From: Octopus sinensis
Taxonomy: Eukaryota
Length of the DNA: 64,000 nucleotides
Assembly (NCBI RefSeq): GCF_006345805.1
Contig: NC_043006.1
Span: 104,656,001-104,720,000, forward strand
Direction of reading: 5' to 3'
Position numbers and translations under genes: made by a program. The notes under the pieces are model-generated. The model searched no databases. It saw nothing but the letters and a program-made list of their open reading frames with translations, and was not told where the DNA came from. Of the stretch, positions 1,785 through 63,775 are shown one piece after another (the stretch's first letter is position 1; each line of letters opens with the position of its first letter).

Positions 1785-2135
1785 TATTTACTCAGCAATG
1801 TCTAGCTCCACTGCTTTTCCGCATTGCGTGTCATCCCGTGAACATTTGTAAAAGGAAAGATTTTGAATTTTCCGTTGCTGCATATTTCCAGTTGCTTACT
1901 TAACGAAATCTTGTCGGATATGCTGTCTGTGTATTATTACTCGTTTGCAGAGCGAATAACTTGTTTCGCCAATGTAATTTTCTTTGCAGATTGGGCAGAT
2001 AATGCAGTATATGAGGTTCTGCGTTTTGCAGATCATATCTGTATTCATTTTGAACGAGAATCCACTCCTGAATTTTATGTGGGAACCAATTTCCAAGTAT
2101 TTAAAGTTGTTGCTGTTGCATGATCCACATTTATC
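1785..2135 (-). mobile_element. Penelope-like element GIY-YIG endonuclease remnant (Neptune-like Cys-rich linker)
   Basis: ORF 1896-2267 contains KCGSC...MICKTQNLIYCIICPICKENYIGETSYSLCKRVIIHRQHI (LIY...YIG, R, H motifs). Confidence 0.85.
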
Positions 2136-2395
2136 TCCACATTCTGATTCATTCATAGATTGTTGTTGTTGATATCGTTTCGGCCGTCTACGAAGTTGCG
2201 GTAACATCACAGACGGATGCAACAATAGCAACAACACGACTAACAACAATGGCAACAACAACAACAACTACTACTACCATGATAGCAACAGCGTGGGCAA
2301 AACACGCACAAACAGAGTGAATTACCAGAACAGTACAAAAAGTTGCTTTGAAAGGCAGCAGCAGCAACGGGGTAGGAACGTACACACACACACAC

Positions 2396-4897: not shown

Positions 4898-5073
4898 GAT
4901 CGCTAGCCACTACACGCATTTTTCTCTCCTTGTTTCTTTCTGTGTTCCTTTCTGTAGAAGAGCGTAGGCTCGAAACGTTAAAGACTTTTTCAATTCCCGA
5001 GCGTTATAATACATCTGTTTGTTGTCTACACCACCTGTCTTCGTGTTTTTTTTATTTTTGTGAATTCTCTCTC

Positions 5074-5078
<5 letters not shown>
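4898..5078 (+). mobile_element. Short (TA)n-associated element (family H) with variant minimal hammerhead at 4947-4984
   Basis: Homologous copies at 30770, 47423, 59844; motif cttt-CTGTAGAA-gagc-gtag-gctc-GAAACGTT-aaaga; ends in (TA)n. Confidence 0.75.
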
Positions 5079-8147: not shown

Positions 8148-8562
<415 letters not shown>

Positions 8563-9424: not shown

Positions 9425-10980
9425 TATATTAGATTACACACGGGACGACCTAGGTATGCTCAAATACCTTCCTGAAACAATTAGTAAAAAAAGCCACTAG
9501 TAACCTTCGATGTAATCAGCCTGTACTATAATATCCCTCATATCCTAGGAATAAAGGCAATCCAATTCTGGCTAGAGAATTACTCCAATGAACTCCCACA
9601 CCGCATCAAAAATGAAGTCGTAATAGAAGGGCTAAAAATCATCTTGAAGAATGGCTTCTTCGTATTCGATGAGAACTTCTATTGAGAAAAATCAGGGACT
9701 GCGATGGATAAGAGAATGGTCCCACCTAGAAATCACTCTATCGTAAGGTACTAGAAAAATACGAAAATTTATTCTCCCTTTACATAGGAAATAACTAGAA
9801 GAGATATCAAGATGGCTGCTTCATTCTTTGGTATGAAACTATAGAGACTTAACATATTTCAAGCACTTCGAAATGGACTTGACACAAGCATTCAATTTAC
9901 GATGGAATATAGCCATCAAAAATTTCCTTTCCTCGACATGCTCATTAAGAAATCCAAATAAAAACAGACATATACTATAAGCTCACGGATTCCAAGAAAT
10001 ATCTTCCGTTCAACTCATGCCACTCAAGACACATTAGAATGAACATCCCTTTCAATCTGACCAAAAGGATTTGCGCTGTAGTGTCGGATACAAGTACGAG
10101 GAATACACACCTACATGAGCTAAAGGATACACTCATCAGCAAGAATTACTCACCATCTCTAATTAATATAAGTTTTCAACGTGCCCTACAGCTTAACGTC
10201 CACGAACTCAGACATCCTAAACCAAAGAATGAATTACGACTAAAAGCCCTATCATACATATCCGCCCACAACCCCTAAACAATGAGGCCTTCGACACTAT
10301 CCTCCAGAATATCCCTTCACTAAAAAGGGGCCATTGAATCAAGGAAATCCTCCAAACGCGCACCATCATAAAAAGCAAAAGACAGCACAAGTCAATGGAA
10401 AGTATTCTAACACAAGCTCAAGTACAATGGTCGACAACATCGATACTGACAGTAAAAAAAATGTGGAAGACCTTACTGTTGTATTTGAGTCAACCTAATT
10501 GAGGGATCAGAGTTCTCCTTCAAAAAAGGTCGGAAAGCCTGGTATCTGTGTTTACTTGCTCAGGGTGTCGAGAGCAATATATTGGTCAAACTAAAAACAG
10601 TCTACGCCAGAAGATGATCGTACATAGATCCCGGATTAAAATACAGGAATATAGAAAAATAGCATTAAGTGAACACATCGACATTTGCGTCACTAACGAA
10701 CAACCCAACTTTAGAATTTTTCCCCTGCATAAATTTAGGGCCAATGCAACCTATGATCAACGCATTAGAAAAGAATTATATTTTATCGCAAATATAAACA
10801 TCTTTTGAATGCTTCCACTACAGATGACTCCACTACAGGATCGGAATAATACCCACGGAAATATTAAAACAATGGATATATTTAGAACAGTTACTATCCA
10901 CGAATTTATTTAGAACAGACCCTGCAGCTACTGCTACTACATCCGTGAGGCCACTTGACCATTAAAGCAGATTCCACAAA
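9425..10980 (+). mobile_element. Decayed Penelope-like retroelement, RT plus GIY-YIG (Neptune-like)
   Basis: FDVISLYYNIPH, GTAM, RYQDGCF (decayed RYIDD), PFLDMLI, NIPFNLTKRICAVVSD (ORF 10039), FTCSGCREQYIGQT..LRQKMIVHRS..ALSEHIDIC..RIRKELYFI (ORF 10548). Confidence 0.9.
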
Positions 10981-18848: not shown

Positions 18849-19391
18849 CTAAGGGGTATTGTGGAAATATACTGTATGGTCATTTAGGTATATGGATTTG
18901 TGGTAGAATTTGAATGTGTGAAAAAAGCGGTGGTAGCATGTGCTTAGTACCTCATTATGTTTATTTAGCAGTGTTGGAGAGTTGTGCTTTAATATGTGAA
19001 GTGCCTCCTTCAGGCAAGGCTTGCAGGTTGAGCGTTGACGTCGGTAGGGAAGCCCTGAATCCAATATGGACCATGATAGAGTATAGGGTATATTTGTATT
19101 TTTGAGATGATGTATGTGGTTGGCGAGTGTTGTAGATTTACTATGTTTATCGTATCTAAAAGAAAGGAGATGAGCGGCATATCGTTGCTTAAAATTTTCG
19201 GTTGATCCTATGTATATGGCTGTAGAATTGTGCAATAGATTAAGGACAGTGCATTTGTAAATTACATTATATCTTCTGCAATGGGTTTGTAACGGGCAGA
19301 TGGTTCCAGGACGGCAGTTACAATGATATGAATTTGGGGGAATGGAGGAGGTAATATTGTCAGAGGAGAGTTTGAGAAAGGGGTAGAACAT
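18849..19391 (-). CDS. Uninterrupted GIY-YIG endonuclease domain of a Naiad-like Penelope element (3' fragment, about 18700-19620)
   Basis: CNCR..CPL..C..VIY..YIGST.NFKQRY..H..SF..STTLA.HI..LK..W.IL..Y..C..CLKE..I..LLNK..E..S.C.H, the typical Naiad-type EN signature; upstream 'ITYSS' linker motif. Confidence 0.85.
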   Translation of the reverse strand: MFYPFLKLSSDNITSSIPPNSYHCNCRPGTICPLQTHCRRYNVIYKCTVLNLLHNSTAIYIGSTENFKQRYAAHLLSFRYDKHSKSTTLANHIHHLKNTNIPYTLSWSILDSGLPYRRQRSTCKPCLKEALHILKHNSPTLLNKHNEVLSTCYHRFFHTFKFYHKSIYLNDHTVYFHNTP

Positions 19392-20298
19392 TCTAGATTA
19401 TTACTATTATTAACTTTATCATTACCATCATTGTTGTCATTACCATTGTAGTTATTAATTGTAGTATTTGTAAGTGGAAGTGATTGTGGTGGTGTTTCGG
19501 GCAGTGTCAGTAGGATGGGTTGGGTTGTGGTTGTGGTCTAATGTAAGGGTATCAGTGCTGGTGGTGTGTGTATGTTGAGTGTTCGTATGACTAGAGCTGT
19601 AAGTTATATTGCTATTTCATTTATTATCTTCGTTCTTGACTTGAAGATACAGAACAAAATTTTAGAGATATGCTCTTTATCAGGTTTTCAGTAATGCTTT
19701 TTGGATGGTTGGTTTGTGTATGTACATTGGGATACACACAAAATATTTCTAAGACATGTTCTATATCTACCTAAACATCTATGTAAAAAGCGTAAGGGTA
19801 CATAATGCTGGAATTAAATTTGAATTTTTGAACTTTATATTACTTTACATGTAAAAGCAAATGATTAAATCCAATAAGACCAAAGTAACAATACTAATTA
19901 CTGATCCACTACCCAAAAGCTTCTTCTACATATCTACTTTTGCAAACCATAACAGAATAATGACCTGAAACTAACACACATAAACATACGCAGGTGTTTA
20001 TAAAGTTTTATACGCATGAATAGATTCTGAACAAAATTATAACACCGGATTTAATGTATAAAATGTTCACCGTACCTCACCATCACAACACAATATACAA
20101 CCTACGATAATGTTAATCATTCGATTGAGCCTCACAAATACCCAGAAATATTTAACTCCATAGAGAAGATATAAATCCAAGATTAACTTAAAGCATCATA
20201 GTCCAATGATGGCTAAGATGGCCAAAACATCGAAGTAACTGTCAATACAATTCTTGTTAAAGAATAGTAAATACATACATGCACATATATGCATACAT

Positions 20299-22170: not shown

Positions 22171-22523
22171 CAAAAATAAGGGTGAAAAAATTGGATATTA
22201 ATTTGATAACATCAATTTAACACCAAGTGGTTTAGCGCATAAAAACTGGGATTCAGTAAATATTAATATACAAATATAAGAGAGAATCCACTATGTGGAC
22301 GCTCTTGCGCTAAAAATAGATCCGCAATGGTCTCAACCATCAAGAATTGTTCTCAAGGAAAATTAGCACAACTATGAACGTAAGCGAGCATAGTTCATAG
22401 TTGTGCTAATTTTCCTTGAGAACAATTCTTGATGGTTGAGACAATTGCGGATCTATTTTTAGCGCAAGAGCGTCCACATAGTAGATTCTCTCTTATATTT
22501 GTGTATTAATATTTACTGAATCC

Positions 22524-22527
<4 letters not shown>
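22171..22527. mobile_element. (TA)n-anchored fold-back element, 135-bp arms
   Basis: Arms 22245-22379 / 22393-22527 (3 mismatches counted), 13-nt spacer, unpaired terminus 22171-22244. Confidence 0.8.
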
Positions 22528-26449: not shown

Positions 26450-27201
26450 TCCAAGATCATTAAGAATGAAGTGTCCGATTATGAACTTTATCTCAACGAA
26501 AAGCAATGCAGTTAATCAATGTATGCACCTAAATTATCAACACAATTTTACTATTTTATCGGTAGCTTATTTATGCTGGCAGTGGAAAATTCTGCTCTGC
26601 AAGAGGTGATGAAATCACGAAAGGGTGTTTTTGCATCTTCTTCAGATTTGAAGTTGTTTCAGATTTGAACTTTGCATCTTCTTCAGATTTGAACTTGCAA
26701 AAAGTTGTCTAATGCCTGGAACAACATGATAGTTGGTGCAAGGTCTGGTGAATATGCTAATTCACGCGTAGTTTGTGAGGTATCCGCTTCCATTACAGTT
26801 TCCAGCTCATCATTATCCACCCTAGTCTCGGGTTTACTATGGGGCTGATTTTCAAGAGAAAAGTCACCAGACCGGAACCATCGATGTACAGTGCGCTCAT
26901 TCGCCACATCTTCATTAAGCATCTCACTGATGTTACAAGCTGTCTGGGATGCATTGGTTCTTGGACGGAATTTATATACATAAACAACACGTTTTTTTTT
27001 ATCTATCCATGGATACGCAAAAATTGATTTATAAGAAAAATCTCACAATATAATCAGGCACCATGAATCGCATTTCGGAAAGTGATGATGTGACGCTTCA
27101 ATGTTGTAAAACAAAGAATTGTCAGGATAAAACATTAGAGTTAGCGACTGTCAAACTTGGTGCAGAAGAAAATCGGACGTTTCATTCTTAATGAGCTGAT
27201 A
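26450..27201 (-). mobile_element. Internally deleted mariner (cecropia/Hsmar1-like)
   Basis: TIRs tcattaagaatgaagtgtccgatt / aatcggacgtttcattcttaatga; ORF 26683-26922 ANERTVHRWF..GDFSLENQP..DNDEL..EAD..TTRELA fused to YSPDLAPT..LFQALDNFL. Confidence 0.88.
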
Positions 27202-29329: not shown

Positions 29330-29700
29330 AACTTTGGGTATGGTAGATGAGTTCATCAAAAATTTAGATTCAGATGAATATGGTACTTAAGTTGAGGCAC
29401 CAGAATTTAGTACGGTATTATCCATACAATTTCAAAGTAAGGTGATTAAAATCAAGATAAGCAACAAGGGTATCCAGATGTAATGCAGTACGATCGTTTC
29501 ATGCAACTCCATTTAATTGAACAATGCAATCATTACACCAATTTTAAATGAAGAGCAATCTTCAACTAAATTCTATGTCTTTGTGCAGCTGAAGATTGCT
29601 CTGCATTTTAAATTAATGTAATAATTGCATTGTCCAATTAAATGGAGTTGCTATAACGATCGTACTGCATTAACTCTGAATATCCTTTTTGCTTATTTCG

Positions 29701-29706
<6 letters not shown>
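29330..29706. mobile_element. (TA)n-flanked fold-back element carrying a hammerhead (29584-29669, +)
   Basis: Arms 29447-29567 / 29587-29706; stem I tgcag/ctgca, CTGAAGA, stem III ACGATCGT-A. Confidence 0.8.
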
Positions 29707-30769: not shown

Positions 30770-30957
30770 GATCGCTAGCCCCTACACGCAATTTTTTTCT
30801 CTCCTTGTTTCTTTTCTGTGTATCTTTCTGTCGAAGAGCGGAGGCTCGAAACGTAAAAGACTTGTTTTATTTCTTTTCCTGAGCGCCATACTAACACATT
30901 GTTTGTTTGTACTCCACCTGCCTTCGTCTTTTGTTTATTTTCGTAAATCTTCCCTTT
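30770..30957 (+). mobile_element. Family H element with variant hammerhead (30823-30860)
   Basis: tcttt-CTGTCGAA-gagc-ggag-gctc-GAAACGTA-aaaga; (TA)n on both sides. Confidence 0.75.
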
Positions 30958-31995: not shown

Positions 31996-32214
31996 CCCAA
32001 TTAAACAAACATCTACCAGTAGTCGTGCTTCAAACGTTCAATATTTCACGTCGAAAGACGTGACTGCCAAGTAGCACGAATTCTCCTGTAGTAAGGTAAG
32101 CAAGCTACTTACCACACAGCCACTCCTGTGCCTATTATGTATGTCTATGTATGTATGCATGTATATGAATGTATGTATGTATTCATGTATGTATGTATGT
32201 ATGTATGTATGTAT

Positions 32215-32580
32215 GCAGTGTCTGTGCAAGACCCTGCCTCAGTAAAGCTGGACTCATGAGTCATCTTTGTAGTCATAAAGCGAGACAGATGAGTGACAAC
32301 CTGACCACTGGTGGTGGTGTAACACACCATACTAATCATATCTGTCGGGCATGTGGAAGAGAGTGTAATTCGGCAGGAGGACTTAAACGGCATGCAAAGG
32401 TACATGAAGCCCAGTTACAACTACAGCCGGCTATTACCGGTAAAGGTTTTAGTTGCCAATTCTGTACAAGACATTGCAGATCTTTAGCTGGGCTAAAAAG
32501 TCACATTCGATCACAGCACCAATAACAGTTAAGCTTCGTGCAATGGCCATACTCGATAACGAGGGGGCAGCCATCATGTA
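32215..32580 (+). mobile_element. 5'-truncated RTE-like LINE 3' end with three C2H2 zinc fingers
   Basis: CSVC..GLMSH..SH, CRAC..GLKRH..VH, CQFC..GLKSH..QH, stop, short 3'UTR hairpin ctcg-ataa-cgag, then ATGT repeat; preceded by (ATGT)n. Confidence 0.7.
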
Positions 32581-35461: not shown

Positions 35462-36061
35462 AAACAGCGAACTGGCAGAAACGTTAGCACGCCGGGCGAA
35501 ATGCTTTGCGGTATTTCGTCTGCCGTTACATTCTGAGTTCAAATTCCGCCCAGGTCGACTTTGACTTTCATCATTTCGGGGTCGATTAAATAAGTACCAG
35601 TTACGCACTGGGGTCGATATAATCGACTTAATCCGTTTGTCTGTCATTGTTTGTCCTCTCTGTGAGTAGTCCCTTGTAGGTAGTAAAGAAATAGGTATTT
35701 CATCTGCCGTTACGTTCTGAGTTCAAATTCCGCCGAGGTCGACTTTACTTTTCATCCTTTCGGTGTCGATAAATTAAGTACCAGTTATGCACTGGAGTCC
35801 ATGTAATCGACTTAATCCGTTTGTCTGTCCTTGTTTGACCTCTCTATGTTTAGCCCCTTGTTGGTAATAAAGAAATAAGTATTTCGTCTGCCGGTACGTT
35901 CTGAGTTCAAATTCCGCCGAGGTCGACTTTGCCTTTCATCCTTTCGGGGTCGATAAATTAAGTACCAGTTACGCACTGGGGTCGATCTAATCGACTTAAT
36001 CCTTTTGTCTGTCCGTGTTTGTCCCTTCTATGTTTAGCCCCTTGTGGGCAATAAAGAAACA
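35462..36061 (+). mobile_element. Trimeric SINE family A with 24-bp TSD
   Basis: One head plus three ~180-bp bodies; TSD agtaacattgcattgttggtaaga at 35438-35461 and 36062-36085. Confidence 0.92.
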
Positions 36062-36294
36062 AGTAACATTGCATTGTTGGTAAGATAATAGCATTTAATG
36101 TCCTGTAGCAGCCATGCCTTCACTCTTTTTTTTATGGAATCTAAAGGAAGTGGCTGTGTTCATCAATTTGCAGACCTTCTGAATCTCGTGACATTGATGC
36201 CATGAATGTCCCTTGAAACATTTCCAGTGATGTCTTAAGTAGAGGTTCATGGAGAAAGGAATGGACATAATCTGCTCTGAGGATTACTATATTA

Positions 36295-36861
36295 TTTTCT
36301 ACTCTAGGTAAAAGGCCCAAAATATTTGGGGAGGGGGGGCCAGTCGATTAGATCGACCCCAGTACGCAACTTGTACTTAATTTATCGACTCCGAAAGGAT
36401 GAAAGACTAAGTCAACCACGACGGAATTTGAACTCAGAGCATAAAGACAAACGAAATACCTATTTCTTTACTACCTACAAGGGGCTAAAACAGAGAGGAC
36501 AAAAAAGGACAGACAAACGGATTAAGTCGATTATATCGACCCCAGTGCGTAACTGGTACTTATTTAATCGACCCGAAAAGATGAAAGGCAAAGTCGACCT
36601 CGGCGGAATTTGAACTCAGAGCGTAACGGCAGACGAAATACCTATTTCTTTACTACCCACAAGGGGCTAAACACAGAGAGGACGAACAAGGACAGACAAA
36701 TGGATTAAGTCGATTATATCGACCCCAATACGTAACTGGTACTTAATTTAATCGACTTCGAAAGGATGAAACGAAAAGTCAAACTCGGCGGAATTTGAAC
36801 TCAGAACGTAACGGCAAAGCATTTCGCCCGGCGTGCTAACGTTTCTGCCAGCTCGCTGCCT
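36295..36861 (-). mobile_element. Trimeric SINE family A with a different last tail; decayed TSD
   Basis: Three bodies; TSD-like tctgaggattactatatta (36276-36294) / tctgaggactaatatagta (36862-36880). Confidence 0.88.
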
Positions 36862-40858: not shown

Positions 40859-41258
40859 TAAACATAGTCAAAATGCGATAAAATAAATTATTATCGCCGG
40901 TGATCTAGCACAAAAGACATTTTAGCCATAGGCCATATGTTATTCATATATAAGTACATTAAAAGGCTTCCAGAAGAAGAAGTGAGTACTAGTTACACAA
41001 AAGTTGGATAAATTTAGTGAAATGAAAATTAGAAACCTTTACAAACTCGGTTCATCTTATACTGCAGTTTCGTCTTTTTCAGCATTATATATAATTGCCT
41101 GAGCAATAAATTATATTTAATGCTGAAAAAGACGAAACTGCAGTATAAGATGAACCGAGTTTGTAAAGGTTTTTAATTTTCATTTCACTAAATTTATCCA
41201 ACTTTTGTGTATCTAGTACTCACTTCTTCTTCTGGAAGCCTTTTAATGTACTTATATA
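40859..41258. mobile_element. (TA)n-flanked fold-back element, 150-bp arms
   Basis: Arms 40947-41096 / 41109-41258 nearly identical; GAAACTGCAGTA hammerhead 3' half at 41134-41145. Confidence 0.85.
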
Positions 41259-42357: not shown

Positions 42358-42946
42358 AGGCGGCGAGCTGGCAGAAACGTTAACACGCCGGGCGAAATGC
42401 TTAGCAGTATTTCATCTGCCGTTACATTCTCAGTTCAAATTCCGCCGAGGACGACTTTGCTTTCATTCTTTCGGGGTCGATTAAATAAGTACCAGTTACG
42501 CACTGGGGTCGATTTAATCCGTTTGTCTGTCCTTGTTTGTCCCCTCTGTGTTTAGCCCCTTGTGGGTAGTAAAGAAATAGGTATTGCGTCTGCCGTCACG
42601 TTCTGAGTTCAAATTCCGCCGAGGTCGACTTTGCCTTTCATCCTTTTGGGGTCGCTTAAATATGTACCAGATACGCACTGGAGTCAATATAATCGACTTA
42701 ATCCGTTTGTCTGTCCTTGTTCGTCCCCTATGTGTTTAGCCCCTTGTGGGTTGTAAAGAAATAGGTATTTCGTCCGCCGCTGCGTTCTGAGTTCAAATTC
42801 CGCCGAAGTCGACTTTGCCTTTCATCCTTTCGGGATCGATTAAATAAGTACCAGTTACGCACTGGGGTCGATATAATCGACTTAATCCGTTTGTCTGTCC
42901 CTGTTCGTCCCCTCTATGTTTAGCCCCTTGTGGGTAGTAAAGAAAC
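42358..42946 (+). mobile_element. Trimeric SINE family A with 19-bp TSD
   Basis: TSD aagaaatgtatgctggata at 42339-42357 and 42947-42965. Confidence 0.92.
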
Positions 42947-45329: not shown

Positions 45330-46060
45330 CCGCATGCAGTTCTACTGATATAATCAGAAAGATAGGGTTTGAGTATACAGGGGTGTTATAAAGAAGTTAT
45401 ATAATATTAAATGTAATGAAACCAGTGGTACCTGCCCTAGATATATAAGCAATGACTGGAATAGGATACAAAGAGCTTGGGACAAAGCAAACAGGGTGAA
45501 CACGTGGTATAAAACCGACAAATATCAAGGAGTGATGTTTGTAGAATCCACAGCCCATAGAGAATTAGCCCGTAGATTTAAGAAAGCTCTGAAGGAGACC
45601 GAACTCAACATTAAAATTGTTGGAAAACCAGGGAACTCCATTAGATCACAACTATGTAGGACGTACCCCTTTGAGAATACCATATGCACCAATGATAACG
45701 ACATGGTATGTAGGATTAGCCCTGGCGTTAACTGTAGAAGTGAAAATGTAGTCTACTGCGTAAGATGCATAGAAGGTGCTTGTAAAGACATGAACATGAC
45801 GTACATAGAAGAGACATCTAGGAGCATTGCGGAAAGACTAAATGAACATTCGAGACAATATGACGACAAAACAACAGTCCTCCATACTCCTCCAACATGC
45901 CAAGGACCAACATAGAGGCAACCTGGATCAACTTCACACCCGCATTTTATCCAAGCACCCAAAGGACCCAACACTCAGACAAATGCAGGAGTAGGTTCTC
46001 ATAAATGAAACATCCCCAGAACTGTATAGGAAATATACATAGCAGATAATCACATCCCCA
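45330..46060 (+). mobile_element. Penelope-like remnant, Nematis-like linker plus GIY-YIG
   Basis: ORF 45496-45915: WYK..YQGVMFVEST..ELA..NIKIVGKPG.S..QL.RT.PF...C...C...NC..ENVVYCVRC..YIEETSRS..ERLNEH. Confidence 0.8.
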
Positions 46061-47015: not shown

Positions 47016-47422
47016 TAAAACATTGAAACCTCGACCGATACAGAAATATTAAACCAAGAATATGAATATTTATTTCTGGTTATGAATTATGTATGATACT
47101 CATAAGTATAAATATTTCCTATCTTGTTGAGTTCTTTAGAGAAGTTATTACTAGAAGATTATGCTATCGCTGTATCTACAAAATGTCTATTTATCTTCAT
47201 TATATTTAGACATGTATTCGTGTGGCTGTGTGTTCGTGTTTGCATATGTGTGCGTGAGTGTTGCTGTGTCTATGTGGGTATACGTATGTGTCTCGCTTTC
47301 TGTCACTCGCTATAAACAGACATAAATGTACACGCACACAAACACACGTTTATATCTTTCTATCTATCTATCTATCTATTATCTTTCTTTCTTTCTATCT
47401 TTCTACACACACACACACACAC

Positions 47423-47600
47423 ATCGTTAGCCACTACACACATTTTTTCTCTCCTTGTTTTTTCTGTGTCCCTTTCTGTAGAAGAGCGTAGGCTCGAAAC
47501 GTAAAAGACTTTTTCTATTCCTTAGCGTTATACTAATACATCTGTTTCTTTTCTACACCACCTGTCTTCGTCTTTTGTTTTTTTTCGTAAAACTCTCCCT
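47423..47600 (+). mobile_element. Family H element with variant hammerhead (47471-47508)
   Basis: cttt-CTGTAGAA-gagc-gtag-gctc-GAAACGTA-aaaga, followed by (TA)n. Confidence 0.75.
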
Positions 47601-48130: not shown

Positions 48131-49334
48131 CATAAACATATATAGATATATGGGATTTGTGTATGTATGTTTGTGAATGCATTTAGTGACAGCTAAAATT
48201 GTTTTACCGTTTGTTGTGATTTTCCTCTGCTCGGACGTTGACTGTACCGCTCACCTTATCGGCGTTGGATTCATTGAACTGGTAGACTGCTGGATGCAAT
48301 GTTTTACGGTATTCCTATTCCATCTCTTCGCTTGCTCTTTGTCTTGATTAGTTTCTAACTCCCTTCACAGTTCCTTTAGAATTACATTGGAAACTTCTTG
48401 AATGGACGCGCATAGTGTAAGTCACGGAATCAATAAATAGTGGGTGCTACGTTGGCGTGTGATCAACAACGTAAAGGGCGATTACTTTAGGATTACCTTT
48501 CAGTTAGTTTTAAATTTGTAAATCCCCTTAACATGATGGCTAATGATTTTCTACAAGAAATTATTTTGTATATACCCAGGATTGAAAATGTATTTTTTTC
48601 AAATTCTTACTATTTTAATAATGAGAAAACTATGTTTCATTTATGTCTTAATAAATAATAGGAAGAAATCAAGAATAAACAATACAATAATCAAAATAAG
48701 CGTGTAGATCACACGAGTTTGACAGTAGTGAGTTTTGCAACGTAAAGAAATTAAAATCTAGCCTAAAGTAATCGCTCTTGAAGTTGTAGATAACACGCCA
48801 CAGCAGCACCAAATATTTTGTGTATGATTGTTTAACGTCATGTGAAAGAATGCTTAAATGTTTCTTGTACACGATACTGATTAAACGGCAAATTAAAACA
48901 AATGGTTTTATAAATTGGGAGACATCACGAGTCTATCAAACAGGTTGCCAGGTGGGCGACAGATAAAGAAAATTGAATTCATGTATGATCACTAACTCTC
49001 AGGTACATTATCAGGAATTGTTATGTGTATATACATATACATACACACACACACACATATATATATACATATACACACACATATACATACATACTACATA
49101 CATACATACATACATACATATATACATACATACATATACATACATATATTTTATAACATATTATTATTAATATCAAGAAATCAATATTAGAAAATTCTTT
49201 AGAAAGATATATACGTGTGTAAAATAAATGTTGTATTAAAAATATAAATATGTATAAAAATATACGTAAATATGTATAAATATAAATATATAATGTATAT
49301 AACAGTTTAAAAGTTTTGAATTAAGTTTTAAAGC

Positions 49335-49424
49335 ATCTTACGATCGTTTCACAGAAGTGCTATCCCTATAATGGAATCCTATATTGATAAGCATTTATAG
49401 ACAACTCTTCTGCTCTTCAGAGAT
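49335..49424 (-). ncRNA. Type I hammerhead ribozyme with intact core
   Basis: Reverse strand: atct-CTGAAGA-gcagaag...cttctgt-GAAAC-gatc-GTA-agat; stems I, II and palindromic III all form. Confidence 0.75.
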
Positions 49425-49900
49425 ATAAAATTTGAATTTTGTACAACATATCGAACGGTAATTTTTTTTTTTAAATTGAAGTAAAACTATAAAATGGTGT
49501 TTGTTTGAAATATAAATTAAAAATTAAAAATTACTGCTTTTGATTTTGGTAGGTACACGTAAGTATGAGAATCCTTAAATCCATACATACTTCCTTGGTT
49601 AGTCTTTTGTAATAATCCATAATATTCATATGTATAATCCGTTATATTGTCTTGTATTCAAAATATAATTCATATACTTAGATAATATAGAATAACGGAA
49701 TCCTATATAGATAACTCTTCATCTCTTCAGTAATATCAAATGCGAAATTTGTATAATTTAACGAATGTTAGTTTTTAAATAAAATTATGAAGTAAAATGG
49801 GGAAATGATTGAAATATAAATTAAAAATTACTGCTTTTGATTTTGGTAAGTACAATTTAGCATGAGAATCTTGAAATTCATATGTCTCCTTGGTAATTCT
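49371..49900. repeat. Two diverged direct repeats (~325-bp period) of the hammerhead-bearing unit
   Basis: 49371-49608 aligns with 49695-49900 ('ggaatcctatat..ctcttcag..aaattactgcttttgattttggta..atgagaatc..ccttggt'). Confidence 0.75.
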
Positions 49901-49915
49901 TATATATATATATAC

Positions 49916-50085
49916 TTTAATTTAGAGATAGTATACCCCTACTTCTCATCAAATAAAAAGAATATTTATTTTTATTTGGTGAGAAGTAGGGGTATACTAT
50001 CTCTAAATTAAAATATATTTCTTCATTGAGAATAATTTGAACTTGTGTTATGCCGGAATTGTTATTCCCTAAAAAATAATATTTA
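49916..50085. repeat. 44-bp-arm hairpin plus unpaired terminus between (TA)n tracts
   Basis: Arms 49916-49959 / 49969-50012, one mismatch. Confidence 0.8.
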
Positions 50086-51366: not shown

Positions 51367-52688
51367 AAAATGCGAGCAAGAGAAATAATATTCGTAAGAT
51401 TATTAACCTGGAAAATTACAGGGAAAGTTATTACACTTGGATAAAATTTGAATATAAAAAAATTATTTGATTTTGATTTACAAAGTAACAGTATAATTAA
51501 AACAGGTACCATCATTTTGTTAAAACCTTGACACACTAAAATACTTTAAAAATGAGAGCCAGAATTACCAATATAGCTAAAGTGTTATGCAAAGTAGAAT
51601 AGTATATATGGCAGGCAAATTCATTATGTCAAAAATAGGTATTGGATCAAGACTAAAAATGTGAAGACTTGGCAATATTTTAGGCAAGAACTCAAGCAAA
51701 TTTTGCTGTGAATTTATTGTTATAGGTAGATTTTACTGTAATATATAATAATTTTTGTATTATTCTATTTATTGTACTATCTAATTAAGTATTGCTATTA
51801 CTTTTATAACCTATTTTCAAATTTCTCATTATTAATTAATAATTTTTTAAAAATGAATTTTAGGAAAGTGCAACATATATTTTTATTGAGTTATTTTAAA
51901 TTTTTAATAGAAACAACAAATAGAAGTAATAACTTGGTATCTTTTCGGTTTGAACGGCAGTTTTTAACATAATTTCTAGGTAACTAAAAATTTTTTAACT
52001 TCGTATACTAGTAGAATGTGTTTATAAAACATCTTTTTCTCTTGGTTTTATTGAGAAAATTCTATAGTTTATAAGATATTTGGTCTTTGATTTCTTGCAT
52101 TTCTGTAATTTCAACCAATCAATGACCGTCTATTGAGGTGAAAACATTCTGTGCCGTATGAATATGTCCCTCGTTTAAGAAACAGATTGGGTTTATTTAC
52201 ATTTGTGAAGAAAAAGATACCCTTTCCCCACCCCTAACCCTAACATATTCATACGGCACAGAATGCTTTTTAACTCAATAGACGCCAGTGATTGGTTGAA
52301 ATTGCAGAAATTGACGAAATTAAAGACCAAATGTGTTACAGACTATAGAATTTTCTCAATAAAGCCAAGAGAAAAAGATGTTTTATAAACACATTCTACC
52401 AGTATACCAAGTTTAAATTTGTTAGTTACCTGGAAATTATGTTAAAAACTGCCGTTCAAACCGAAAAGATTCATAACTTGTAATAAGATTTTAATTTTGA
52501 TAAAATCTATTTTCTAAATCTAAATATTTTATTTGAAATGTTATCCTTAGTTGCAATATTTTAAGTCAAAGTTTTCTTGTTCTGTACTTTACCAATAAGT
52601 TGTCCTGAACTTTTCCATGTGTAATAACTTGTTCTGTAATTTTCCAGGTTTATTATCTTAGGAATATTATTTCTGTTGCTCGCATTTT
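51367..52688. mobile_element. Non-autonomous DNA transposon with ~75-bp TIRs (host of nested MITE)
   Basis: 51367-51441 is the reverse complement of 52614-52688 with scattered mismatches. Confidence 0.75.
51937..52472. mobile_element. MITE with ~230-bp TIRs and 8-bp TSD (Merlin-like)
   Basis: TSD ataacttg at 51929-51936 and 52473-52480; TIRs 51937-52167 / 52243-52472; CCCTAACCCTAA in the spacer. Confidence 0.88.
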
Positions 52689-59843: not shown

Positions 59844-60020
59844 GACCGCTAGCCACTACACATTCTTTACTTTCTCTCCTTGTTTCTTTCTCTGTGCCTG
59901 TCTGTGGAAGAGCGTCGGCTCGGAACGTTAAAGACCTTTTCACCTCCCGAGCATTATACTAATACATCTGTTTGTTGTCTACAACACCTATCTTCGTCTT
60001 TTTTTTTGTGAAATCTCCCT
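59844..60020 (+). mobile_element. Family H element with variant hammerhead (59897-59934)
   Basis: CTGTGGAA-gagc-gtcg-gctc-GGAACGTT-aaaga. Confidence 0.7.
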
Positions 60021-62218: not shown

Positions 62219-62239
62219 ACTATATATATAGATAAATAA

Positions 62240-62306
<67 letters not shown>

Positions 62307-62523
62307 TCAATTTAGGGTAGCAAAAAATTCAATAGAAATTTATCGCTACCAGCGGCCTAGTGGAAAAGAGAAAATAGTCAAAGACTAAACTATATAAATA
62401 TAACAATTAAGGAGTGGCCTTAACAGGCCATTCGTCCACTAGAGAGAGCAGCCAGAACACAAACCGCCAAGCAGTATTAATTCAGAAATTAGGTGAAAAT
62501 TTAAAAACGTTTACCCTAATTCA

Positions 62524-62625
62524 TCTTTTAGACGATGCATCGTTTCTGTGTTTTTAAATGATAAACTAGCTTAATTAAATTAAATTAAGCTAATCTACCA
62601 TAGGTCACACTTCATCAGTAAAAGA
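62524..62625 (-). ncRNA. Type I hammerhead ribozyme (left-arm copy)
   Basis: Reverse complement of 63025-63126. Confidence 0.75.
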
Positions 62626-63024
62626 CCTGGGAGAGACAAATATACACGAGGCGTCTGTATCAATGCCTCCGGAATATCTGTCTTAACATTTTCAAGACCA
62701 ACGTGTTCGCGCCAACCCATCAGCAGTAAATATAAACTGCCGATTCAATCTCAGAATTAGTCAGAAAATTATCAATTAATCAAGTTAGGGTAGCAAAAAA
62801 TTCAATAGAAATTTATCGCAATAGAAATTTATGGAAATTTTCTATTGAATTTTTTGCTACCCTAAATTGATTAATTGATAATTTTCTGACTAATTCTGAG
62901 ATTGAATCGGCAGTTTATATTTACTGCGGATGGGTTGGCGCGAACACGTTGGTCTTGAAAATTTTAAGACAGATATTCCGGAGGCATTGATACAGACGCC
63001 TCGTGTATATTTGTCTCTCCCAGG

Positions 63025-63126
63025 TCTTTTACTGATGAAGTGTGACCTATGGTAGATTAGCTTAATTTAATTTAATTAAGCTAGTTTATCATTTAAAAAC
63101 ACAGAAACGATGCATCGTCTAAAAGA
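63025..63126 (+). ncRNA. Type I hammerhead ribozyme (right-arm copy)
   Basis: Stem I tctttta/taaaaga, CTGATGA, stem II gtgt/acac extended by a 19-bp G-U-containing hairpin, GAAAC, palindromic stem III ACGATGCATCGT, GUC triplet at 63117-63119. Confidence 0.78.
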
Positions 63127-63246
63127 TGAATTAGGGTAAACGTTTTTAAATTTTCACCTAATTTCTGAATTAATACTGCTTGGCGGTTTGAGTTCTGGCT
63201 GCTCTCTCTAGTGGACGAATGGCCTGTCAAGGCCACTCCTAAATTG

Positions 63247-63293
<47 letters not shown>

Positions 63294-63714
63294 AATACAA
63301 AAAATGGGTCAAGAACGCGGCAGGCAACAACAAAGCATCCAAAGAGTGGGATGATTCAAAAAGGGACATGAAAAAACAAGGACGTGTCGTTCGGTGTTTT
63401 CTTTCGTCAGTCGAGTTCCAGATTATTTTTGCAATTTCCGCTGGTTATACACTGGACTGCTCCAATCTGACTAGCCCCAAGGAAAATCTAAGCTAAGAAC
63501 ACTAGATTTCTTGGAAGAAAGGGAGAAAAAAAAACGGAGAAATGTTATACAAACACAAATGTAAACGTCAGGACATTAACAACAGGTGACTTTCGACTAA
63601 GGAGGAATTAAATTAAGCTGGCGTGTGTAGAATTGAAACCTTATAGCAGGGACATAAGAGATGACAGGTATGGAAAGGAATAGATATGTTGCACGGATAT
63701 ACATATATAGCGTG

Positions 63715-63775
<61 letters not shown>

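Follow-up and report, generated by a model that had tools for sequence, protein, structure and literature searches.

The window, i.e. the whole 64,000-nt stretch of DNA analyzed here, contains between two (TA)n tracts a mirrored insertion (62302–63252) that is quite probably a recent copy of a non-LTR retrozyme, inserted in trans at (TA)n by the enzymes of Penelope-like elements (PLEs), which likely built its mirror arm as well. Judged from its sequence, the repeat represents a novel family within the non-LTR retrozymes (non-autonomous PLEs) and the present copy an ordinary PLE-type insertion. Since both the element class and the palindromic layout have already been described, the gain is incremental: this is a family of known type and not a new system. 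Literature searches on cephalopod or octopus hammerheads and on head-to-head insertions brought up no account of such a family; a consensus may already exist in Dfam, in Repbase or in the repeat library of O. vulgaris. The published case for a mobilization of animal retrozymes by PLEs draws on hammerheads common to both, on co-occurrence and on phylogeny (PMC7229834; 10.64898/2026.07.22.740005). A retrozyme unit bearing the marks of PLE insertion adds support of a different, structural kind to this hypothesis. Furthermore, a family with many copies permits counting of start sites, stop sites and arm identity, which bears on the formation of head-to-head PLE repeats.

The features of the insertion are collected in Table 1. 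It had been predicted that the first 45 bp of an ORF-less unit located between two (TA)n tracts recur 473 bp later, and all coordinates of this claim check out: the direct repeat (62302–62346 and 62775–62819, offset 473 bp) contains one mismatch. The proposed fold-back with arms of 414 bp was recovered at 62398–62811 and 62839–63252, the arms being identical at 408 of 414 positions (six mismatches), and the second sequence copy expected inside the 27-nt spacer is a duplication of 62803–62816 at 62819–62832. The longest stop-free frame lying wholly within the element comprises 58 aa, in agreement with an ORF-less unit, and three short frames scanned against Pfam gave no match. The hammerhead-sense strand runs outward on both arms, and the 5′ ends meet at the center. 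Read in this sense, the long arm consists of segment A, the remainder of the unit and segment A again (518 nt in total); the short arm (414 nt) starts 8 nt into segment A and stops 96 nt before the end of the long arm. Measured from the predicted cleavage site, the arm ends are located 133 and 229 nt downstream, and the outer ends of both lie a few bases beyond the shared 9-mer CCTAAATTG. In a post hoc test on pairs of positions drawn at random from the unit, a 9-mer placed in this way was shared in 2.2e-4 of the draws. The right arm ends at a TA-like stretch of the unit (62389–62401); a target-site duplication, if there is one, is unreadable inside the flanking (TA)n. For the circular monomer we calculated a fold of -131.6 kcal/mol (z = -6.3, 40 shuffles), with z = -5.5 for the antisense strand.

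Table 1. Coordinates of the mirrored insertion, its hammerhead motifs and the PLE coding remnants in the window
Feature	Position	Strand	Remark
Left (TA)n tract	62221-62303	n/a	putative insertion target; repeat scan
Right (TA)n tract	63248-63291	n/a	repeat scan
Segment A′, 45-bp terminal repeat	62302-62346	-	3′ end of long arm in hammerhead sense; 44/45 identical to 62775-62819
Segment A	62775-62819	-	5′ end of long arm
96-bp extension	62302-62397	-	left arm only; possible equivalent of PLE 'tail'
9-nt motif CCTAAATTG	62308-62316	-	just within left end
9-nt motif CCTAAATTG	63238-63246	+	just within right end
Monomer, 473 bp	62347-62819	-	36% G+C, without ORF, strong self-pairing predicted
Palindrome, left arm, 414 bp	62398-62811	-	
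Palindrome, right arm, 414 bp	62839-63252	+	inverted, 5′-truncated copy without extension
Copy-specific junction (spacer), 27 nt	62812-62838	n/a	carries 14-nt templated duplication
Type I hammerhead, left copy	62523-62626	-	predicted cleavage after 62531; CUGAUGA at -62618
Type I hammerhead, right copy	63024-63127	+	predicted cleavage after C63119
Right copy, stem I	63024-63031/63120-63127	+	7 Watson-Crick pairs + 1 G-U
Right copy, core CUGAUGA	63032-63038	+	
Right copy, A·A opposition	A63039/A63103	+	base of stem II
Right copy, stem II, 4 bp	63040-63043/63099-63102	+	bears 19-bp hairpin
19-bp hairpin within stem II	63049-63092	+	3 G-U pairs; fold -20.3 kcal/mol sense, -9.6 kcal/mol antisense
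Right copy, GAAA	63104-63107	+	
Right copy, palindromic stem III, 12 nt	63107-63118	+	followed by GUC ending 63119
Decayed PLE coding remnant, GIY-YIG-like	1899-2267	-	translation reading, as for 45373-45912
Decayed PLE coding remnant (RT/GIY-YIG)	9949-10805	+	homology searches
Decayed PLE coding remnant, resembles GIY-YIG	18852-19397	-	homology searches
Decayed PLE coding remnant, GIY-YIG-like	45373-45912	+	translation reading

Each arm had been predicted to hold a complete type I hammerhead, and this layout was confirmed, with an additional G-U pair in stem I. The 19-bp hairpin in stem II was also recovered, with three G-U pairs where four had been counted. A strict motif descriptor, one of the checks proposed with the original prediction, matched three times in the 64-kb window (both arms and -49420) and not once in 60 local block shuffles. 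Covariance models had been proposed as well, and here Rfam returned no hammerhead match, even at E up to 10 on a 151-nt stretch; on the element it gave nothing beyond hairpin and microsatellite matches below the gathering scores. What carries the ribozyme call is therefore the descriptor together with covariation, the third check, for which compensatory changes in stems II and III were found among public contigs (see below). Stem III folds with -1.0 kcal/mol as a monomer versus -18.7 kcal/mol as a dimer; a marginal monomer and a strong dimer are typical of dimer-acting hammerheads (PMC4209133), and the predicted ribozyme likely cleaves best as a dimer via its palindromic stem III, in tandem source arrays. 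The active hammerhead shape was absent from the minimum-energy folds, both local and circular. A full read-through transcript of this copy is predicted to form a single long duplex (-736 kcal/mol) in which both hammerheads are locked, and it should therefore give no active ribozyme. Hence, of the dsRNA and the ribozyme that transcription had been expected to deliver, the model retains the duplex and loses the ribozyme; the read-through RNA is probably an inert long duplex and the copy a dead end.

In order to place the unit among public data, we used contigs of sequencing runs. Parts of the sequence were contained in 20 of 24 listed public runs (nine studies, four organism labels), with a maximum of 0.39 of its words. 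Four of the runs (X1, X3, X6 and X7; organism labels A, B and D) were compared with 62302–62880 at 80% likeness; the RNA origin of X6 is a guess, no RNA run being listed among those with a match, and label C, which contains the sequence too, lies outside the four runs compared in detail. The listed items cover 40 of the 67 variant rows, 12 of the 20 indel rows, 24 of the 130 loose ends and 32 of the 1,878 pieces, and statements on them have this scope. Matching contigs were found in all four runs (887, 26, 833 and 126). Summed depth across the unit, which is not to be equated with copy number, ranged from 9,462 to 242,477 in X1 and from 44,116 to 562,544 in X3. In the spacer bin (62822–62841) the four runs reached 129, 5.8, 115 and 2.6 (129 in X1, 115 in X3). 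From the great depth over the unit and its collapse in this bin, we regard the unit as a high-copy family and the center of the palindrome as private to this copy. The share of matching contigs that continue into unlike sequence is 0–0.04. A head-to-tail junction is present in X7 (record 32, depth 118.5), where 62740–62817 is followed by 14 letters matching 62345–62358; in X6 a loose end ahead of 62311 resembles 62756–62785, agreeing with such a junction. The head-to-tail evidence in the contigs thus consists of one contig, reaching 14 letters beyond the repeat, and one loose end. The longest listed piece on the unit measures 247 nt, and no contig covers the whole unit or two hammerheads. The search for tandem copies suggested earlier accordingly yielded a high-copy family and a head-to-tail junction, the palindrome center being nearly absent from the contigs.

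Two other inversion joints were observed, both of which read as head-to-head copies: one in X1 connects 62454 to 62853, and one in X3 connects 62593 to 62847 with 31 intervening letters that resemble 62591–62619. In both of them one arm begins in segment A, and these two joints hint that the cDNA may often stop there. None of the joints listed in the contig comparison was a strand-change joint. A contig of X6 (depth 5.8) matches 62792–62828 (37 nt) and carries 255 unrelated letters on each side; it may reflect chance or belong to a related element. When the unit was compared with the 64-kb window by BLAST, no second copy was revealed. Exact-pattern scans were negative for metagenome contigs (0 loci) as well as for viral contigs (0), and a sigma-70 scan, which has no relevance to a eukaryote, remained at chance level.

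Ten of the listed variants fall inside the hammerhead. Record 31 of X7, for which 20 of 21 substitutions are readable from the variant table by depth, accounts for six of them, and all six are structure-neutral: a U-A to C-G exchange is compensated on both sides of stem II, three further one-sided changes keep the pairing, and one change affects the free core position N7. The other four comprise two at unpaired positions, one A11.1 to C exchange and one at 62599, which disrupts a hairpin pair unless the partner changes too. A loose end of X7 (four contigs) is altered on both sides of stem III with the palindrome preserved, and indels in stem I occur among the family variants. No listed variants hit the 12 invariant core positions; with ~0.9 expected (39 listed positions in 518 nt) this is not significant alone. 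At position 11.1, A is the majority letter, C making up ~6% of the depth in X1 and X3, 0 in X6 and 46% in X7. A sister form was seen in loose ends and one joint, with G10.1 and C11.1 never both on one contig.

The mismatch at the base of stem II had been noted as an oddity. The mismatch itself was confirmed; as A at 11.1 predominates in the public contigs, however, the sequences identify it as a family trait, the majority form, and not as damage to this copy. The 10.1/11.1 pair is the most conserved one of stem II (PMC3088659), and an A·A at this position could lower hammerhead activity. A mismatch precedent is the U·U of axolotl HHR_Amex2 (PMC7229834, PMC3088659); our literature search found no A·A precedent for this pair. 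The majority A·A variant also offers a straightforward way of testing what a hammerhead tolerates. Eight of nine predicted Xenopus retrozymes failed to cleave in vitro (10.64898/2026.07.22.740005). The motif resembles the minimal PLE hammerheads of PMC4209133, which are also of type I, possess a palindromic stem/loop III favoring the dimer and carry an A right after CUGANGA. In those hammerheads, however, stem II is closed by G10.1-C11.1 and the additional nucleotide stays unpaired, whereas here a second A precedes GAAA in most copies, and the element differs from the minimal form by its full palindromic stem III and long stem II. Pairs of hammerheads 100–700 bp apart on opposite strands are noted in the same paper.

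Like the metazoan non-LTR retrozymes of PMC7229834 and 10.64898/2026.07.22.740005, the element is a short, non-coding unit of low G+C content with a type I hammerhead of intact core and a head-to-tail junction; it is multicopy, its monomer RNA is predicted to be highly self-paired, and PLEs coexist with it. The unit of 473 bp slightly exceeds the 150–450 bp given in the former paper and lies within the 51–972 bp of the latter, where a retrozyme counts as 'active' if at least two full tandem units each bear a hammerhead. Unlike the published metazoan retrozymes it has a long stem II (65 nt between the core halves) with the A·A at its base. According to this literature, solo (monomer) copies are frequent. 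In its main text, the 2020 retrozyme paper (PMC7229834) uses the word 'inverted' 0 times, and the abstract-to-discussion text of 10.64898/2026.07.22.740005 describes no head-to-head retrozyme insertion; supplements may list related families.

This layout is instead found among PLEs. Published PLE insertions form partial tandems with an inverted 5′-truncated copy at the 5′ end, bear a 30–40 bp tail at one end and show a bias for microsatellites (PMC8557442, PMC3846280). As in EN+ PLE insertions (PMC3846280, PMC8557442, PMC11167929), we found a head-to-head inverted, 5′-truncated copy, an extension at one end, a partial tandem, a hammerhead within the repeat and an AT-rich target, here (TA)n on both sides. 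Unlike in EN+ PLEs, the extension measures 96 bp and the element is devoid of the ORF for RT and GIY-YIG endonuclease that characterizes an autonomous PLE. The non-autonomous PLE MRC1 of Chlamydomonas (PMC8557442) is likewise non-coding, pLTR-forming and often head-to-tail, with mobilization in trans inferred; most Chlamys elements are without canonical hammerheads (PMC8557442), whereas one is predicted here. The proposal of a young, ORF-less element of retrozyme type is thus upheld by high copy number, junction and covariation. The palindrome had been taken to define a special 'hairpin' class, and this part did not hold: published PLE insertions are alike, the center is copy-specific and fold-backs recur in the window, which is why we consider the copy a typical PLE insertion.

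For the insertion we propose the following course. Tandem copies would be transcribed into a multimeric RNA, or into a circle after hammerhead cleavage and ligation. The GIY-YIG endonuclease of a PLE would nick both (TA)n strands, and its reverse transcriptase would start at two sites 96 nt apart, each just beyond CCTAAATTG. This would yield two cDNAs, one of 518 nt (a full unit plus 45 nt) and one of 414 nt; as both traverse the hammerhead, the template would have been uncut or re-ligated. Finally, the 3′ ends of the two cDNAs would be end-joined head-to-head, leaving the 14-nt duplication. A length of 473 + 45 suits one turn of a circle with a short overrun, and a tandem transcript fits equally. 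In vitro, the PLE protein of Anolis nicks and extends both strands of AT-rich DNA, and reverse transcription begins inside the RNA at two sites bounding the tail, the template RNA being uncleaved (PMC11167929). The short motif at which either arm ends is consistent with priming of this sort on the two nicked strands. We give about an even chance to a mirror arm derived from two cDNAs that were primed on both nicked strands and joined at their 3′ ends. It is possible but doubtful that the family combines the full PLE signature, with two motif-defined starts, a cDNA stop at about one turn plus 45 nt, a circular ribozyme RNA template inserted by PLE enzymes from both strands and an active A·A hammerhead. 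If so, the insertion would directly document, within the genome, the copying and insertion of such an RNA.

Double priming is only slightly favored over self-primed fold-back, which the original prediction had put forward and which now stands as one of two comparable models. Here, a 518-nt cDNA would have slipped and folded back, copied itself over 414 nt and joined the target via the TA-like stretch at 62389–62401; we assign this course somewhat less than an even chance, and a later rearrangement would be quite unlikely. The slipped duplication in the spacer and the end of the right arm at the TA-like stretch agree with fold-back, and PMC3846280 prefers self-priming where PLE junctions are palindromic, albeit with a template in antisense. 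The arms provide further evidence. At four of the six mismatches the near-fixed letter of the family stands in the right arm and a private letter in the left, the remaining two positions being outside the listed rows. Some letters that are in the minority among matching contigs, e.g. at 62705, are present in both arms. By these sequences the arms were probably identical at insertion, to which a subsequent change of ~0.7% per arm fits, and a recent insertion is supported. Under double priming or fold-back, identical arms imply one template molecule or one source locus, and the shared alleles suit fold-back at least as well as double priming. However, fold-back alone does not explain why the two outer ends lie immediately beyond one and the same 9-mer, a motif that fits double priming, and the two-strand activity of the Anolis enzyme, with its tail between two reverse-transcription start sites (PMC11167929), speaks against it.

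It would alter the identity of the element if the unit were only the terminal repeat (pLTR) of a coding PLE, the copy being a 5′-truncated stump that includes a 45-bp partial tandem. Coding PLEs typically show truncated partial tandems as well as inverted pairs of pLTRs, PLE coding remnants occur in the window, and a rare coding parent could hide among short contigs, with 24 of 130 loose ends listed. Nevertheless we consider this reading rather unlikely: the contigs close a 473-bp circle and cover the unit over its entire length, no more than 4 in 100 matching contigs run on into unlike sequence, and no frame of at least 30 aa extends from the hammerhead out through the extension, unlike in Anolis and rotifer pLTRs. 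Far less probable is a hammerhead-like motif that arose by chance in a MITE-like DNA element of fold-back type or in an assembly chimera. The window is rich in long inverted repeats, and among the listed contigs no independent one spans the center of this copy. However, the six substitutions between the arms argue against a fresh assembly chimera, as does the templated spacer; the 45-bp direct repeat and the one-sided extension do not suit a MITE; two more inversion joints come from independent runs; and a chance motif is at odds with the covariation and with a descriptor that is silent in shuffled sequence. We therefore retain the retrozyme inserted by PLE enzymes as the preferred reading.

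PLEs make up 6.83% of the O. vulgaris genome, with 190 families of which 31 were recently active (PMC13282606). The landscape of microsatellites and repeats in the window gives the impression of an octopus host; atlas and homology searches bore out the PLE domains and named no cephalopod. In the remnant with RT/GIY-YIG likeness (Table 1), frame 10503–10805 matches two of 48 candidate proteins, each of which has an RT domain and one of which has GIY-YIG; frame 9949–10275 is RT-associated and resembles HTH_animal clusters. BLAST of the unit against the window gave no link to the remnants, and inspection of the 3′ flanks of the four by eye gave no likeness to the unit. The hammerhead 3′ half followed by a palindromic stem III occurs nine times at seven loci in the window, versus 0.49 expected (100 shuffles, maximum 3). 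The long-stem-II hammerheads of the window align poorly; they share the layout, without clear homology to the 473-bp family.

A second, unrelated retrozyme-like element is located at 49200–50018. It contains two head-to-tail units of ~310 bp (49396–49901, 73% identical), the upstream hammerhead being decayed, a complete type I hammerhead at 49420 (minus strand) with CUGAAGA, a 7-bp stem II and a palindromic stem III, and a 109-bp hairpin (49910–50018) adjoining a TA run. An older head-to-head fold-back (29447–29706, 82% arm identity) ends in (TA)n and has one long-stem-II hammerhead per arm, with one core half damaged. At 40947–41258 a 312-bp head-to-head fold-back with TA flanks carries only the hammerhead 3′ half in each arm (GAAAC, palindrome, GUA), cut at the center. 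The 283-bp near-perfect fold-back at 22245–22527 ends at (GT)n, and a pattern search detected no hammerhead core in it. Nested, MITE-like inverted repeats occupy 51367–52688 (51939–52470 inside 51367–51444/52611–52688), with a short CCCTAA run at the center.

A repeat of ~180 bp is present in four copies that are 83–88% identical (4899–5074, 30771–30955, 47420–47600 and 59847–60007); three of the four contain a motif like a minimal hammerhead in which the first half of the core is altered, and a similar motif was observed on the minus strand near 8411. Arrays with a unit of 183–184 bp and about three copies, two of them mutually inverted, are located at 35510–36818 and 42407–42945. Other frames include a Mos1-type transposase HTH fragment (26686–27042, minus strand) and a C2H2 zinc-finger frame (32169–32522, plus strand). 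The right flank of the insertion (63292–63715) occurs once in the window, has a CGAAAGUC motif near 63595 on its minus strand and contains a 14-nt match to the inner hairpin of the element; it is possibly another decayed retroelement end.
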